28,987 bases of DNA from an uncultured Candidatus Saccharibacteria bacterium (lineage in GTDB: Bacteria; Patescibacteriota; Minisyncoccia; UBA6257; 2-01-FULL-56-20), in contig CAZCTJ010000002.1 of assembly GCA_964501675.1 (NCBI GenBank), forward strand, positions 1-28,987. The letters are read 5' to 3'. Each line of letters starts with the position of its first letter. The stretch's first letter is position 1. The translations under genes were made by a program, and so were the position numbers. Below are positions 13,859-19,971 of the stretch, one piece after another. The notes under the pieces are model-generated. The model was given only the letters and a program-made list of their open reading frames with translations. It was not told the DNA's origin and made no database searches.

Positions 13859-15325
13859 ATGTCCGAGAAGTTCTACATCACCACCACTCTGCCGTACGTG
13901 AATGCGCCGCCGCACATCGGTTTCGCCCTGGAAATGGTCCAGGCGGACGCAGTGGCCCGTTTCGAGCGCCTGGAAGGCAAGGAGGTGGTGTTCAACACCG
14001 GCACGGACGAACACGGTTCGAAGATATACCAAAAAGCGCTCGAGGAGGGGAAAGAGCCGCAGGCTTACGCGGACGAGTATGCGCCCCGGTTCGACCGGCT
14101 CCGGGAGGCCCTGGACCTTTCCTATACCCACTTCATCCGCACCACCGATCCGCACCATCTTCTGGCCGCCCAGGAATTCTGGCAGAGGTGCGACCGGAAC
14201 GGCGACATATACAAAGCCGCCTACCGGATGAAATATTGCGTGGGCTGCGAGCTCGAAAAGACCGATTCCGAGCTTGTGGACGGCCGCTGTCCCATTCACC
14301 CCAATCTCGTCCTGGAGGAAAGGGAGGAAGAGAACTATTTCTTCCGTTTTTCGAAATACGGACCGGCGCTGCTTGAGCTGTACGGGAGATATCCCGATTT
14401 CGTCCTGCCCGAGAACCGCCTGACCGAGATAAGGAATTTCGTCGCGGCGGGGCTCAAGGACTTCAGCATCTCCCGGCTTAAGGAAAAGATGCCCTGGGGC
14501 GTGCCGGTACCCGGCGATCCGGACCACGTCATGTACGTGTGGTTCGACGCGCTTGTGAATTACATTTCCACCCTGGGCTGGCCGGAGAAAGAGAACGATT
14601 TCCGGGCCTTTTGGGGGACCCCGGAGGAGCCGCGGGCCCTGCAGATCGCGGGCAAGGACAATCTTCGCCAGCAATCCGCGATGTGGCAGGCGATGCTCTT
14701 ATCCGCGGGACTGCCCACTTCCCGCCGGATACTGATCCACGGGTTCGTGACGAGCGGCGGCGAGAAGATGTCCAAAAGCCGCGGCAACGTAGTGGACCCC
14801 TTCGAGCTTGCGGAAAGATACGGCACGGATGCGGTCCGCTACTGGCTGCTGCGCGAGATGCCCGCCTTTGAGGACGGAGATTTCACCGTGGACAAATTCG
14901 AGGAGCGATATGCGGGCGATCTCTCGAACGGGTTGGGCAATTTCGCGTCCCGGACGACCGCGCTCGCGAAGGAGCCCCTGGTCCTTTCCGAACGGCGTCT
15001 GGACGCGGAAGTGGAATCGAAGATCGACGAGACCCGGGAAAAACTTCGGAAGAGCGTCGCCAAGTTCAATTTCAATGAAGCGCTTGCGGACGTTCAGGCG
15101 CTCGTTAAATTCGGGGACGAGTACGTGAACCGCAAGAAGCCCTGGGAGACCGGCGACCAGGATGCGATCTACGGCCTAGTGGTCCTCTTGGACAATCTCG
15201 GCGCGCTGCTCCAGCCGTTCCTGCCCGGGACGGCCCGGAAAATAACAGGATCCATTTCCCACCAGGACGGCCGGCTGTCGGTCACCCGAATGGAAGCGCT
15301 CTTCCCGCGGCTTCCGAGCAAATAA
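13859..15325 (+). CDS. metG: Methionyl-tRNA synthetase, short form without a C-terminal appended domain
   Basis: TTTLPYVNAPPHIGF (HIGH variant), GTDEHG, CVGCE zinc knuckle, YVWFDAL and KMSKS. Confidence 0.96.
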   Translation: MSEKFYITTTLPYVNAPPHIGFALEMVQADAVARFERLEGKEVVFNTGTDEHGSKIYQKALEEGKEPQAYADEYAPRFDRLREALDLSYTHFIRTTDPHHLLAAQEFWQRCDRNGDIYKAAYRMKYCVGCELEKTDSELVDGRCPIHPNLVLEEREEENYFFRFSKYGPALLELYGRYPDFVLPENRLTEIRNFVAAGLKDFSISRLKEKMPWGVPVPGDPDHVMYVWFDALVNYISTLGWPEKENDFRAFWGTPEEPRALQIAGKDNLRQQSAMWQAMLLSAGLPTSRRILIHGFVTSGGEKMSKSRGNVVDPFELAERYGTDAVRYWLLREMPAFEDGDFTVDKFEERYAGDLSNGLGNFASRTTALAKEPLVLSERRLDAEVESKIDETREKLRKSVAKFNFNEALADVQALVKFGDEYVNRKKPWETGDQDAIYGLVVLLDNLGALLQPFLPGTARKITGSISHQDGRLSVTRMEALFPRLPSK

Positions 15326-16186
15326 ATGAAGTTCATCGACGCGCACACCCACGTTCAATTCGCGGCGTTCCGAGACGACTGGCGGGAAACGATGGCCCGC
15401 GCGCTTAATGCGGGTGTTTTTGTGGTGAACGTGGGCACCCAGAAGGACACTTCCCGCCGGGCAGTGGAGATCGCGCGGGAATACCCGGAGGGGGTTTGGG
15501 CCGCGGTCGGCCTGCATCCCCTCCACACCTCCAAGTCGTTCCATGACGCCGAGGAGTTGGGCGGTAGGGAAGGCGAGGAGTTCACCTCCCGGGGCGAAGA
15601 GTTCGACCGTTCCCATTACCTGGAGCTCGCCCGGGATCCCAAAACGGTCGCGATCGGGGAGTGCGGACTGGATTATTTTCATCTGCCGGACGCGGAGGGC
15701 GCCAAAGCCAAGCAGAAAGCGGCATTCGAGGCCCAGATGGAACTTGCTAAAGAGGTGGGGAAGCCGCTCATGGTCCACTGCCGGCCCGACCCGACCGGAG
15801 CGTCGGGCGATGCCTACCGGGAAACGATAGATATGCTCAAGGCGTCTGATCCCGGACCGGGCATAATTCATTCGTTCATGGGCACCCTGGAGGAAGCCAA
15901 GGAATTTATCGAGCTCGGATATTATTTCACTTTCGCCGGGAACATCACCTTCAAGCCGCGGGCGGATAAGCCGTCGCTCGAACCCGTCATCAGACATATC
16001 CCGCTCGACCGGATAATTTCGGAGACCGACGCGCCCTATCTCGCTCCCGTGCCGCACCGCGGCAAGCGGAACGAACCGTTGTACGTGATCGAGGTGGTGA
16101 AAAAGCTCGCGGAGATAAAAGGAGTGTCCGCGGAAGAAATGGCGGAATTGACGTTTAATAACGCGAAGATGATACTTGGAACATGA
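15326..16186 (+). CDS. tatD: TatD-family nuclease/hydrolase
   Basis: DAHTH, GLHP, IGECGLD, HCR, HSF and SETDAPY motifs. Confidence 0.93.
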   Translation: MKFIDAHTHVQFAAFRDDWRETMARALNAGVFVVNVGTQKDTSRRAVEIAREYPEGVWAAVGLHPLHTSKSFHDAEELGGREGEEFTSRGEEFDRSHYLELARDPKTVAIGECGLDYFHLPDAEGAKAKQKAAFEAQMELAKEVGKPLMVHCRPDPTGASGDAYRETIDMLKASDPGPGIIHSFMGTLEEAKEFIELGYYFTFAGNITFKPRADKPSLEPVIRHIPLDRIISETDAPYLAPVPHRGKRNEPLYVIEVVKKLAEIKGVSAEEMAELTFNNAKMILGT

Positions 16187-16256: not shown

Positions 16257-16922
16257 ATGCAAGCGGTGATACTTGCGGCGGGGCTCGGCACCCGCATGAA
16301 AGAATTGACCAAAGACGTTCCCAAGCCGCTTTTGAGGTCCGGGAGCGAGACGCTCTTGGAGCAAAAGCTCAAGAACCTGCCTGACGCGATCGGGGAAGTG
16401 GTCATCGTGGTGGGTTATCTCGGGAACCGCATCCGGGAAGCCCTGGGAGATTCGCAGTTCGGCCGGAAGATAACCTACGTAGTTCAGAACGAGCTCAAGG
16501 GCACTGGGCATGCCCTGTCCCTGTGCAAGCCGGTCCTCGAGGACCGCTTCCTGGTGCTCATGGGCGACGATCTTTACCGCAAAGAAGATCTCACGGAGCT
16601 CCTTAAGCATCCTTTGGCGGTGCTCGCGTGGAACCTGCCGGACGACACGAACGGCCGCCTGTGGGCGGAACTTATCCGCGGGGAGAAGGGAGAGCTCTTG
16701 GGGATCGTGGAGAAGCGGCCCGGCCGGCCCGGCATGCTCATCAACACCGGCGCCTATGCGCTTGACCGGAGGTTCTTCGACCATCCCCTGGAACCGGCGG
16801 GGAACGATACCGCCGAGTTCGGCCTGCCCCAGACCATCGTGCGCATGGCAAAGAAGGGCGAGGAAATAAAAATAGTTCCGGCGAGCTGGTGGAAGAACGT
16901 CACCGAGCCGGGAGACCTTTAA
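16257..16922 (+). CDS. Sugar-phosphate nucleotidyltransferase (NTP_transferase family)
   Basis: AVILAAGLGTRM...PKPLL, Q.ELKGTGHA, GDD and INTGAY motifs; no left-handed beta-helix domain. Confidence 0.88.
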   Translation: MQAVILAAGLGTRMKELTKDVPKPLLRSGSETLLEQKLKNLPDAIGEVVIVVGYLGNRIREALGDSQFGRKITYVVQNELKGTGHALSLCKPVLEDRFLVLMGDDLYRKEDLTELLKHPLAVLAWNLPDDTNGRLWAELIRGEKGELLGIVEKRPGRPGMLINTGAYALDRRFFDHPLEPAGNDTAEFGLPQTIVRMAKKGEEIKIVPASWWKNVTEPGDL

Positions 16923-16924
16923 TT

Positions 16925-16933
16925 TGATAGAAT
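16925..16933 (+). promoter_or_regulatory. Extended -10 (TGaTAGAAT) upstream of leuS
   Basis: 14 nt upstream of the ATG at 16948. Confidence 0.45.
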
Positions 16934-16947
16934 CAACTTATTCCGGG

Positions 16948-19900
16948 ATGAGATACGATTTCAAGAAAACAGAGGCCAAGTGGCGGAAGGTCTGGGAAAA
17001 AGAGGGGATATACGAGCCCGCTCTCAAAAAAGCCGGCAAGCGCAAGCCCTTCTACAACCTGATGATGTTCCCGTACCCTTCCGCGGAAGGCCTGCATATC
17101 GGGGGCGTGCGGACCTTCACCGGCGTGGATATCTACGGACGCTTCAGGCGCATGCAGGGCCGGGACGTGTTCCAGCCCATCGGTTTGGACGGTTTCGGGA
17201 TCCATTCCGAGAACTACGCCCTGAAGGTCGGTAAGCACCCCCTGGAGCACGCCGCGGATTCCGAGAAGAATTTTTACCGCCAACTGGGGATGATCGGCAA
17301 CGGCTTCGCCTGGCGGGAGCGCCTCGAGACCTATGATCCGGGATACTACAAATGGACCCAGTGGATATTCACGGAAATGTTCCGGCGAGGTTTGGCTTAC
17401 CGCAAGAAACAGCCGGTCAATTGGTGCCCGTCCTGCAAGACGGTGCTCGCGGACGAACAGGTGATAGGCGGAGAGTGCGAACGCTGCGGAAGCCGAGAGG
17501 TCAAGAAGGACTTGGAGCAGTGGTTCTTCAAGATAACCGCCTACGCGGACCGGCTGCTACGAAATTTGGATGGGTTGGATTGGGCGGAAGTGATCAAGAC
17601 CGCCCAGCGGAACTGGATCGGCAAAAGCGAAGGCGCGGAGCTGGATTTCCCGGTGGCCGGCAAGTGGAATTTCGTCCTTCTGCATGGGTTCCAGGGTTCT
17701 CCCCGGGCCAATTTCTTCCCTTGGCTCAAAAAAGAACTGGAGTCCCGCGGTTACCCGGTCACGGTCCCGGAGCTTCCCAATTCCAAGGACCCTTCGGAAG
17801 CGGAGCAGGTCGGCTACGTGCTCGCGAACGCGAAATTCGACGCGAACACCGTCATTGTGGGGCACAGCCTGGGCGCAGCGATGGCGATGAAGGTCTTGGA
17901 AAAACTGAAAAAGCCGGTGGCGGGACTGGTCACCGCCGGCGGATTCGCCCGGGCCGATTTCATCGACCATCCCCGGCCCTTCGCCGAAACTTTCCGCTGG
18001 AAATTCGATTTCAAGCGTATCCGCAGGAATGCGGGATTCATAAAGATCCTTTCCGCCCGGAACGATTACGCCGTTCCGCAAAGCGAAGGCAAATTACTTC
18101 GCGACAAGCTGGGCGGCGAGCTTAGGGAGACCGCGGCCCGGGCCGAGCACTTTTGCGGCAAGCAGGAGCCGGACATCCTGGACGCCGCCCTGCCCCGCAT
18201 TCGGGTTTTCACCACCCGGCCGGATACTTTGTTCGGAGCGACCTACATGGTTCTCGCGCCGGAGCATCCCCTGATCCAGAATCTGGAATATAGGATCCAG
18301 AATCTGGCCGAGGTCAAGCGGTATATTGCCGAAGCCAAGAAGAAAACCGATGAAGAACGGATCACGGAGGGCAAGGAAAAAACCGGCGTGGAGCTCAAAG
18401 GCCTCCGGGCCGTGAATCCCGTGACCGGCAAGGATATGCCGGTTTGGGTCGCGGACTACGTGCTTTCCGGATACGGCACCGGCGCGATCATGGCCGTGCC
18501 GGGGCATGACGAGCGCGATTTGGAATTCGCTAAGAAATTCAAGCTGCCCGTCGTCAAGGTGGTGGTGCCCGTCCTGCACCGCCGCATGCTCGACGCCCGA
18601 GGCCGTGCCTCCGGCGCGGAGGAAGTTCTGGCGGTCCAAAGCGAATGCTGGGAAGGCGAGGGGGAATTGGTGAACTCCGGCAGGTTCAGCGGCTTGCATT
18701 CGGACAAGGCCAAGCGGGCCATCGTGAAGGAGGTGGGCGGACGGCAGAAGAGCCAGTACCGCCTGCGGGATTGGCTCTTGTCGCGCCAGCGCTATTGGGG
18801 CCCGCCCATTCCGATGGTCCGTTGCGAGGCGTGCGCGAAGGCCGGCAAAGGGGACCGGCGGGACATGCCCGGCTGGTACGCGGTCCCGCTGAAGGACCTG
18901 CCGGGCAAACTGCCCAAGATAAAAGATTTCCGCCCGAAGGGCACTGGGCTCTCGCCCCTTGCCGCTCACCGCGAATTCTATGAAGCGAAGTGCCCCGGCT
19001 GCGGAGGCAAAGCCCGCCGGGAGACGGACGTTTCCGATACCTTCCTGGATTCCGCCTGGTACTATTTGCGCTATCCCTCCGTCGGATCCTCGCAAGCCCC
19101 CTGGGACCCGGCCGTAAATAAAAAGTGGCTGCCGGTCCACTCTTACATCGGAGGCGCGGAGCATGCCGTTCTGCATCTTTTGTATTCCCGTTTCCTGGCC
19201 ATGGCCCTGAAGGACGCCGGACATCTCCATTTCGAGGAGCCCTTTACAAGATTCCGGGCGCACGGGCTCATAACCAAGGATGGCGCAAAGATGTCCAAAT
19301 CCAAAGGCAACGTGGTCGCTCCGGACGAATACTTCCGCAAATACGGCGCGGACGTCATGCGCATGTATCTCGCGTTCCTTGCGCCCCTGGAACAAGGCGG
19401 AGATTTCCGGGACGAGGGCATTTCCGGCATCACCCGGTTCCTGGAAAGGGTCCGCGATTTCGGGCGGTCCTTCCGGTCGGGCGCCAAGGCGAACGGGAAG
19501 GTCGAGCGCGCGCTGCACCGGACGATCAAAAAAATGACGGAAGACCTCGACGCGCTCAAATTCAACACCGCCACGAGCGCGCTCATGGTGCTTTTGAGGG
19601 AAATGGAGGAAGCCGGCCCGAACGGGGTGACCGCTTCTCAGTGGGACCGCTTCCTGCGGCTTCTCGCGCCCCAGGCGCCATTTCTCACCGAGGAACTGTG
19701 GCAGGCCCGTTTCAGCAAGGACAAATTCCGAAGCATCCATCTTGCGGAATGGCCGGAGGCGGATGCCGCGATGCTAAGATCCGAGACCTTCACCCTGATA
19801 GTTCAGGTGAACGGCCGGGTCCGGGCGGATATGGAAGTGCCCGCGGGCATAAGCGAGAAAGAGGCGACCGAGCTCGCCCTCGGGAACGAACGCATCCGCC

Positions 19901-19971
19901 AGTTCTTGGACAATAAAACCCCCCGGCGGATAGTTTACGTCCCCGGGAGACTTCTTAATATAGTCATTTGA
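16948..19971 (+). CDS. leuS: Leucyl-tRNA synthetase, about 1007 aa, with an inserted alpha/beta-hydrolase domain
   Basis: MFPYPSAEGLHIGG (HIGH variant), WCPSCKTVLADEQ, WIGKSEG, TTRPDT, GTGAIMAVPGHDERD, DWLLSRQRYWG, KMSKS and VQVNGRVR. ATG at 16948 is preferred over TTG at 16924. Confidence 0.97.
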   Translation: MRYDFKKTEAKWRKVWEKEGIYEPALKKAGKRKPFYNLMMFPYPSAEGLHIGGVRTFTGVDIYGRFRRMQGRDVFQPIGLDGFGIHSENYALKVGKHPLEHAADSEKNFYRQLGMIGNGFAWRERLETYDPGYYKWTQWIFTEMFRRGLAYRKKQPVNWCPSCKTVLADEQVIGGECERCGSREVKKDLEQWFFKITAYADRLLRNLDGLDWAEVIKTAQRNWIGKSEGAELDFPVAGKWNFVLLHGFQGSPRANFFPWLKKELESRGYPVTVPELPNSKDPSEAEQVGYVLANAKFDANTVIVGHSLGAAMAMKVLEKLKKPVAGLVTAGGFARADFIDHPRPFAETFRWKFDFKRIRRNAGFIKILSARNDYAVPQSEGKLLRDKLGGELRETAARAEHFCGKQEPDILDAALPRIRVFTTRPDTLFGATYMVLAPEHPLIQNLEYRIQNLAEVKRYIAEAKKKTDEERITEGKEKTGVELKGLRAVNPVTGKDMPVWVADYVLSGYGTGAIMAVPGHDERDLEFAKKFKLPVVKVVVPVLHRRMLDARGRASGAEEVLAVQSECWEGEGELVNSGRFSGLHSDKAKRAIVKEVGGRQKSQYRLRDWLLSRQRYWGPPIPMVRCEACAKAGKGDRRDMPGWYAVPLKDLPGKLPKIKDFRPKGTGLSPLAAHREFYEAKCPGCGGKARRETDVSDTFLDSAWYYLRYPSVGSSQAPWDPAVNKKWLPVHSYIGGAEHAVLHLLYSRFLAMALKDAGHLHFEEPFTRFRAHGLITKDGAKMSKSKGNVVAPDEYFRKYGADVMRMYLAFLAPLEQGGDFRDEGISGITRFLERVRDFGRSFRSGAKANGKVERALHRTIKKMTEDLDALKFNTATSALMVLLREMEEAGPNGVTASQWDRFLRLLAPQAPFLTEELWQARFSKDKFRSIHLAEWPEADAAMLRSETFTLIVQVNGRVRADMEVPAGISEKEATELALGNERIRQFLDNKTPRRIVYVPGRLLNIVI
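17662..18198 (+). other. In-frame RBBP9/YdeN-like serine hydrolase domain inside the LeuRS CP1 region
   Basis: LLHGFQG oxyanion motif, GHSLG nucleophile elbow (Ser 17866), NDYAVP (Asp 18064) and EHF (His 18148). It lies between GAELDFPVAG and IRVFTTRPDT. Confidence 0.88.
18274..18308 (+). repeat. Five degenerate 7-nt repeats inside leuS
   Basis: atccaga-atctgga-atatagg-atccaga-atctggc, encoding IQNLEYRIQNLA. Confidence 0.7.

Follow-up and report, generated by a model that had tools for sequence, protein, structure and literature searches.

The 28,987-nucleotide stretch of DNA analysed here (contig CAZCTJ010000002.1 of assembly GCA_964501675.1; hereafter the window) carries a leucyl-tRNA synthetase (LeuRS) gene, leuS, in which an entire hydrolase-like domain of the YdeN/RBBP9 type is nested within the editing domain, CP1 (Table 1). 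The open frame of leuS extends from TTG 16924 to 19971; the likely start is ATG 16948, in agreement with the 1007 amino acids (aa) of the LeuRS protein on record (P0003), and residue numbers for LeuRS are counted from TTG 16924. Matching pieces of the TIGR00396 profile flank the insert, with a score of 826 bits against a cut-off of 548 bits, and a search with this profile found a single LeuRS in the 727-kb, 95%-complete genome of the source organism, a tiny groundwater bacterium.

An initial annotation, made from the sequence alone, had described about 179 aa lying in frame between GAELDFPVAG and IRVFTTRPDT, and translation of the open reading frame indeed places exactly 179 codons (17662-18198) between GAELDFPVAG (17632-17661) and IRVFTTRPDT. 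A gap between profile positions 237 and 239 splits the TIGR00396 match, and that to the editing domain PF13603 picks up again at profile position 22. No more than one profile position of the editing domain has thus been given up for the insert, which takes the place of a turn; the initial annotation had likewise described this spot as only a short turn in canonical LeuRS. In a full-length AlphaFold2 model (predicted local distance difference test, pLDDT, 90.3; predicted template modelling score, pTM, 0.81), the insert joins both strands of the first CP1 beta-hairpin and forms a compact domain with linkers of 2-4 residues. Outside the insert, the model superposes on Thermus thermophilus LeuRS (2bte_A) with a target-normalised template modelling score (TM) of 0.84 (Foldseek).

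The motifs HG, GHSLG, NDYAVP and EHF lie where they had been placed, and the assignment of the insert to the YdeN/RBBP9 type was confirmed by both sequence and fold. The search with PF06821 that had been proposed as a check scored 32.5 bits (1e-7) on the isolated insert and 28 bits on the whole protein, above the gathering threshold of 22; Abhydrolase_6 also matches. Compared by sequence with solved structures, the insert retrieved YdeN (1uxo) at 5.8e-14 and RBBP9 at 2e-7. An insert-only AlphaFold model, built from 72 sequences, reached a pLDDT of 96.8 and superposed on YdeN 1uxo with a TM of 0.86 (root-mean-square deviation of 2.0 A) and on RBBP9 7oex with a TM of 0.83, all other folds and hydrolases scoring 0.72 or lower. 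The triad, whose conservation across orthologues the initial annotation had named as one of the points to check, is retained: Ser315 and Gly317 are invariant both in 54/54 embedded sequences and in 72/72 embedded plus free-standing ones, His409 is invariant as well, and Asp381 is replaced in two sequences only, by Glu (motif counts refer to those 54 of the 57 homologous clusters in which the hydrolase aligns at site A, the CP1 hairpin). The insert is apparently a folded and catalytically competent member of the YdeN/RBBP9 family of hydrolases, in which Ser315, His409 and Asp381 would form the triad and HG the oxyanion hole; its activity is predicted from motifs and models. A self-splicing insertion was considered and rejected, since Pfam scans found no Hint or intein family, the junctions consist of ordinary loop residues and the hydrolase fold is complete.

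Table 1. Features of leuS and of the nested hydrolase domain in the window.
Feature	Position	Strand	Basis or remark
leuS, bacterial-type leucyl-tRNA synthetase with insert	16948..19971	+	TIGR00396, 826 bits
Class I signature, HIGG instead of H(V/M)G(H/N)	17095..17106	+	Alignment of homologues
YdeN/RBBP9-type alpha/beta serine hydrolase insert (predicted), K247-R425	17662..18198	+	Hidden Markov model envelope, residues 244-427
HG oxyanion-hole motif, H254-G255	17683..17688	+	H in 53/54, G in 49/54 site-A homologues
Nucleophile elbow GHSLG, Ser315 at 17866-17868	17860..17874	+	Ser and second Gly invariant
Clade-specific loop, consensus PxFxDxxRPF, here ADFIDHPRPF	17953..17982	+	Region matching the RBBP9 substrate-binding loop
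Predicted triad acid Asp381 in NDYAVP	18064..18066	+	D in 52/54, E in 2/54
Predicted triad His409 in EHF	18148..18150	+	Invariant, embedded and free-standing
E415-P416	18166..18171	+	E415 marks the synthetase-linked clade; distant free-standing relatives have L or F
CP1 threonine-rich editing motif TTRPDT	18211..18228	+	Five residues past insert end
CP1 editing motif GTGAIMAVPGHDERD (D529, D532)	18475..18519	+	D532 invariant, D529 in 55/57
Site C, CP1 loop, empty here	18580..18633	+	Inserts in relatives at reference positions 553/568; examples P0059 and P0057
Site B, loop past first CxxC of post-CP1 zinc knuckle, empty here	18823..18888	+	Inserts in relatives
KMSKS motif	19288..19302	+	Present in translation

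The host enzyme keeps its own proofreading equipment. The PF13603 match has an E-value of 8e-58, and the editing residues T430, T431, T435, D529 and D532 are conserved among homologues. The insert thus adds to the editing site and does not replace it, as had been proposed: both TTRPDT and the motif around D529 and D532 are intact here and conserved in the relatives. The HIGG form of the class I signature is unique among the 57 homologues; the fourth position is H (38) or N (14) in 52/57 homologues with a residue there. In the full-length model, pLDDT drops below 50 at residues 553-570, so that the loop of site C comes out as disordered.

Several observations indicate that the composite gene is genuine and maintained. 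Logan contigs from runs of three studies (groundwater and soil) cross both insert junctions unchanged, so that a chimeric assembly, which the initial annotation had named as a possible source of error, was ruled out. Strain variants of the insert comprise five synonymous and four non-synonymous changes, all of the latter at variable positions, with neither stops nor frameshifts. The overall GC content of the insert and that at third codon positions (GC3) equal those of the host gene, which suggests that the insertion is old; recent horizontal acquisition was rejected on the same grounds. Furthermore, 57 LeuRS-length protein clusters from many assemblies carry the hydrolase, at 39-61% identity in the insert, and named homologues belong to Komeilibacteria, Doudnabacteria, Spechtbacterales and the 'Patescibacteria group'. 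The notion of an artefact, be it a chimera or a decaying insertion in a pseudogene, has next to nothing left to recommend it: besides the spanned junctions and shared GC3, it is contradicted by the single open frame, by the status of this gene as the only leuS of its genome and by the number of homologous clusters.

Searched against 1.84 billion cluster representatives, the insert matched 1821 proteins at E<=1e-3, 602 at <=1e-10 and 40 at <=1e-30. In a phylum sample of 401 Patescibacteria genomes, a related hydrolase was found in 167, with at least 28 copies in LeuRS-length frames and one in a valyl-tRNA synthetase (ValRS); most other copies in this sample are free-standing proteins of 175-215 aa that are 25-37% identical to the insert. 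In order to locate the embedded copies, the hydrolase was delimited in each protein with a hidden Markov model and the LeuRS flanks were mapped. Site A, the CP1 hairpin as at 17662, is occupied in this LeuRS and in most homologues. Site B lies in the zinc knuckle downstream of CP1, past its first CxxC (L061, 45% identical; P0086, 52%), and site C is a distal CP1 loop, which holds a NUDIX domain in many relatives and the hydrolase in P0059. In ValRS, the hydrolase occupies the loop after DTWFSS (L060, 48% identical; P0107); equivalence of this position with site B of LeuRS was rejected, the two loops not being homologous. Apparent N-terminal hydrolase-LeuRS fusions and split LeuRS (P0030, P0085 and others) likewise turned out to be mis-called starts, with the N-terminal part of LeuRS present in frame upstream.

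A maximum-likelihood tree of 86 hydrolase domains contains a clade with support 100/97 that unites 26 site-A, 8 site-B and 2 ValRS copies with 13 free-standing ones; none of the 24 distant free-standing hydrolases falls within it. Inside the clade, a site-A and a site-B copy form a sister pair (95/90), and the starred branches alone require the site-A label to have changed at least seven times. The residues F264, L316, A321, K323, F346, D348, R351, W359 and E415 are specific to the clade and common to its embedded and free copies, which argues that they serve function rather than docking. Three of them (F346, D348 and R351) belong to the PxFxDxxRPF loop and are kept in all architectures of the LeuRS-linked clade, whereas the loop is gapped in the distant free-standing clade. 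Arg351 is replaced by F or W in the ValRS-embedded copies (L060, P0107/P0152; 2-3 sequences) and conserved in the LeuRS-linked ones; judging from these 2-3 sequences, the position may be a host-specific determinant of specificity.

Free-standing members of the clade also keep company with leuS. When ten of them were looked up by locus, eight adjoined leuS, upstream or downstream, and the gene orders around them amount to about six distinct syntenies. P0088, P0095, P0101 and P0130 precede a leuS without insert by 3-37 bp, P0109 precedes leuS by 1.35 kb, and P0113 and the tandem hydrolase P0092 directly follow leuS. At locus L062, the free-standing clade member lies 7 bp upstream of leuS. The operon of P0097 reads hydrolase, hydrolase, YbaK-like tRNA_edit, Ham1 and an archaeal-type LeuRS (TIGR00395, 751 bits). 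Of the remaining two members, one is without leuS on a 3-kb contig and the other could not be judged. Loci sharing the synteny leuS, Sua5/YrdC, MFS have the hydrolase either as the gene after leuS (L073, L075) or inside leuS (L071). In the window itself, leuS is preceded by metG (13859-15325), tatD (15326-16186) and an NTP-transferase gene (16257-16922), all on the + strand; at locus L074, tatD is likewise found two genes upstream of a hydrolase-leuS pair.

The initial annotation had suggested tabulating what occupies the turn at 17662 in LeuRS relatives. The hydrolase is there in most of them, and further modules are added in some: a Ham1/ITPase-like domain (29.5 bits) in the roughly 200 aa after the hydrolase (P0010/P0030), a GNAT acetyltransferase in the roughly 190 aa before it (P0180), an in-frame DUF559 (Vsr-like endonuclease) domain at residues 462-564 of P0042 and an in-frame IS200-type Y1 transposase domain at residues 263-368 of P0059. 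NUDIX occupies site C in 16/57 homologues. Every insertion site adjoins highly conserved motifs, recalling the target choice of homing elements, and by this analogy the placement may hint at how the modules move. Fusions of other kinds were also observed. A hydrolase-bearing LeuRS, P0012, has a 250-aa C-terminal extension (residues 1000-1256) that opens with a prepilin-type N-methylation motif (PF07963) and may represent a fused or mis-called downstream pilin-like gene. L048 (G083), P0192 and P0165 are end-to-end fusions of a hydrolase of the distant free-standing type with an ANT(2'')-like nucleotidyltransferase, an inositol monophosphatase or an adenylate kinase.

RBBP9 is the only characterised member of the family. 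It traps single Leu/Ile, Met, Phe, Tyr or Trp residues on its serine as a seryl acyl-enzyme, requires a free alpha-amine, removes N-terminal residues and cleaves aminoacyl amides (PMC8866121); an entry in the reference list of PMC7730578 also names it as an enzyme activating valacyclovir, a valyl ester. The best reading of the insert, and one to which we give an even chance of being correct, is that of a hydrolase which is coupled to LeuRS yet autonomous and which cleaves alpha-aminoacyl esters, anhydrides or amides. The chemistry of RBBP9, together with the anatomy of the fusions, argues for such an autonomous enzyme whose position was not itself selected. The domain would work alone, through a seryl acyl-enzyme, on alpha-aminoacyl compounds with a hydrophobic side chain that are made or needed by LeuRS. 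Candidate substrates would be mis-acylated tRNA(Leu) after its release, escaped non-cognate aminoacyl-adenylates or esters (including thiolactone-type products of class Ia editing), or peptides that would supply leucine from their N-terminal residues. The insert would act beside the intact CP1 pocket and not as a part of it, as one of several interchangeable 'house-cleaning' modules that Patescibacteria have attached to LeuRS. The aminoacyl nature of the substrate is an extrapolation from RBBP9, and a benefit of the coupling to LeuRS is presumed. Owing to the several insertion sites and to the separate genes beside leuS, the link between hydrolase and LeuRS looks selected, the exact place next to the editing pocket not being required; a role in clean-up or quality control is suggested by the partners that recur beside the hydrolase, namely NUDIX or Ham1 and a YbaK-like gene.

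The initial annotation had listed N-blocked and peptidyl-tRNA among the possible targets, which now appears improbable given that the genome possesses its own Pth (C12:10089-10571) and that RBBP9 depends on the free alpha-amine (PMC8866121); replacement of Pth by the insert was rejected on account of the former. Domain searches of the same genome found neither DTD (PF02580) nor a YbaK/ProX-type (PF04073) domain, an absence that counts in favour of the hydrolase coupled to LeuRS, and 14 genes with a NUDIX domain are present in its 727 kb. DTD was detected in 35 of the 401 sampled genomes. The possibility that the hydrolase replaces DTD was discarded, since the two distributions are not complementary: the hydrolase occurs in 19/35 genomes with DTD versus 148/366 without it.

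Not all observations favour an aminoacyl hydrolase coupled to LeuRS, and the following weigh against it. Hydrolases with the clade signature are also inserted in AlaRS, TsaD, SecA and UvrA (P0144, P0132, P0120 and P0179, the AlaRS copy lying between the catalytic and editing parts), albeit in one cluster each, versus about 45 for LeuRS and 2 for ValRS. The LeuRS of this lineage accommodates unrelated chemistry as well, namely NUDIX, Ham1, GNAT, DUF559 and Y1 transposase. In the main site-B subclade (L061, L041, P0056, P0134, P0138, P0143 and P0216), Asp381 is replaced by F or E; these copies retain the Ser, the His and an Asp three residues earlier, and could possess a migrated acid or a Ser-His dyad, as far as their sequences tell. 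By a gap-free count, Arg351 stands opposite the amine-binding Glu108 of RBBP9, in a loop where the alignment is unreliable, and this makes the transfer of RBBP9 specificity to the insert uncertain. Finally, no recurring neighbours were found for the distant free-standing clade at 20 loci, and leuS was within about 5 kb of such a hydrolase at only one of these, on the opposite strand.

The main rival builds on part of this evidence. It holds that the hydrolase is a passenger with a job unrelated to leucylation, such as a general esterase or a scavenging aminopeptidase, which rides in permissive loops of large, essential and constantly expressed proteins, LeuRS being the most tolerant carrier in streamlined genomes. 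The occurrence of the same clade in SecA, UvrA, TsaD and AlaRS would fit such a scenario, as would the shifting position of the hydrolase in LeuRS, the Ham1, GNAT, DUF559 or Y1 transposase domains at the same turn in relatives, and the fact that related free-standing hydrolases, with no conserved neighbours, are present in many more genomes than the embedded form. Tolerance, however, leaves unexplained why eight of ten separate genes adjoin leuS, on both sides and including an archaeal-type leuS, and why about 87% (45/52) of the fused clade representatives have LeuRS as their host; on balance we consider the passenger scenario rather unlikely. The suggestion in the initial annotation that this turn may be a permissive docking site retains some support from the variety of domains, down to an IS200-type transposase domain, that relatives carry there, but it does not account for the separate genes next to leuS. 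A different view, which had been the central one of the initial annotation, would have the tRNA(Leu) CCA end handed to Ser315 from the hairpin leading into the CP1 pocket, so that the insert would form a position-dependent second editing site. The end of the insert five residues before TTRPDT and its short linkers (2-4 residues) agree with this, and so do the weaker acidity of the embedded domains (mean net charge of -0.7 vs -5.3 for the distant free-standing ones) and the YbaK-type deacylase that shares an operon with clade members. The argument from nearness to the tRNA 3' end is nevertheless weakened by the variety of positions, close relatives being found at site B in the catalytic core, at site C, in the ValRS loop and as separate proteins; moreover, the CP1 editing residues are fully kept, and we know of no alpha/beta-hydrolase that acts as an aminoacyl-tRNA deacylase. 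Such a position-dependent site thus seems distinctly improbable.

It is also conceivable that the module, together with NUDIX or Ham1 in relatives, provides built-in immunity by cleaving aminoacyl-nucleotide antibiotics that mimic Leu-AMP, in analogy to the MccF-type serine peptidases that detoxify processed microcin C. LeuRS, ValRS and AlaRS would be the targets of compounds of this type, the family cleaves aminoacyl amides and nucleotide pyrophosphatases recur beside the hydrolase; yet SecA, UvrA and TsaD do not fit as hosts, and the LeuRS described here is without a nucleotide hydrolase partner, which leaves immunity a very slim prospect. Returning to the hydrolase coupled to LeuRS, a bolder version would posit a LeuRS-centred quality-control complex in Patescibacteria and DPANN archaea, in which the Ser-His-Asp hydrolase, often paired with NUDIX or Ham1, would serve as a second, chemically different clearance site for faulty aminoacyl-tRNA or aminoacyl-adenylate. 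We put this version forward tentatively, as a proposal that is more doubtful than not.

Few proofreading machines have been studied as thoroughly as LeuRS and its CP1 domain, the latter being a target of benzoxaborole drugs, and a second catalytic domain nested in CP1 lies outside the textbook picture. Both the synthetase and the hydrolase family are known; the partnership between them is undescribed and evolutionarily recurrent, as evolution has re-created the pairing through insertion at several sites and through gene adjacency, including that with an archaeal-type LeuRS. Should the hydrolase act on aminoacyl compounds, it would represent a new class of translation quality-control factor and would point to a physiological function of the orphan YdeN/RBBP9 family; should the quality-control complex exist, its hydrolase would be the first of the alpha/beta type to serve a tRNA synthetase in proofreading. 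If the domain is a passenger, it would show in what way ultra-small genomes fit enzymes inside essential genes and would mark the loops of LeuRS that tolerate whole domains. Annotation is affected as well, since public records list some of these synthetases under 'alpha/beta fold hydrolase' or 'hypothetical protein'.

Among known systems, BPHL (valacyclovir hydrolase) is an alpha-amino-acid ester hydrolase and homocysteine thiolactonase (PMC4198189), and the insert resembles it, by analogy, as an alpha/beta serine hydrolase of the type that acts on alpha-aminoacyl esters and thioesters. This likeness suggests a possible role in the clean-up of class Ia synthetase editing products. BPHL nevertheless belongs to another alpha/beta-hydrolase family and has a lid, and neither sequence nor fold comparison of the insert gave a BPHL match above those of generic hydrolases. 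The closer relatives are YdeN of Bacillus subtilis (1uxo) and human RBBP9 (2qs9, 7oex, 9fcr), with which the insert shares the small, lid-less alpha/beta-hydrolase fold of about 180 aa, the order of HG, GHSxG, Asp and His, and a WLKK helix motif. RBBP9 prefers aromatic N-terminal residues, and YdeN has no assigned substrate. Unlike these proteins, the known members of the family being free-standing, the insert lies within a synthetase, shares only 20-26% identity with the solved structures and belongs to a clade with a PxFxDxxRPF loop and signature residues (F264, L316, A321, W359 and E415) of its own.

No account of a hydrolase embedded in LeuRS was found in literature searches, and in a 2026 survey of domain insertions the LeuRS editing domain appears as an insert only, never as a host (PMC13114784). 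The synthetase otherwise conforms to canonical LeuRS (T. thermophilus 2bte/1h3n, Escherichia coli 4aq7/4arc, Neisseria gonorrhoeae 7nu3) in its KMSKS motif, two zinc knuckles, CP1 editing motifs, anticodon-binding domain and C-terminal domain, and departs from it in having HIGG for HIGH and a predicted 179-aa catalytic domain in place of a turn of the first CP1 hairpin. In being an accessory hydrolase genetically tied to a synthetase, the insert parallels the trans-editing factors (YbaK/ProX PF04073, AlaX, DTD) and fused editing domains; it differs from all of these in its unrelated fold and Ser-His-Asp mechanism, and is a putative deacylase.

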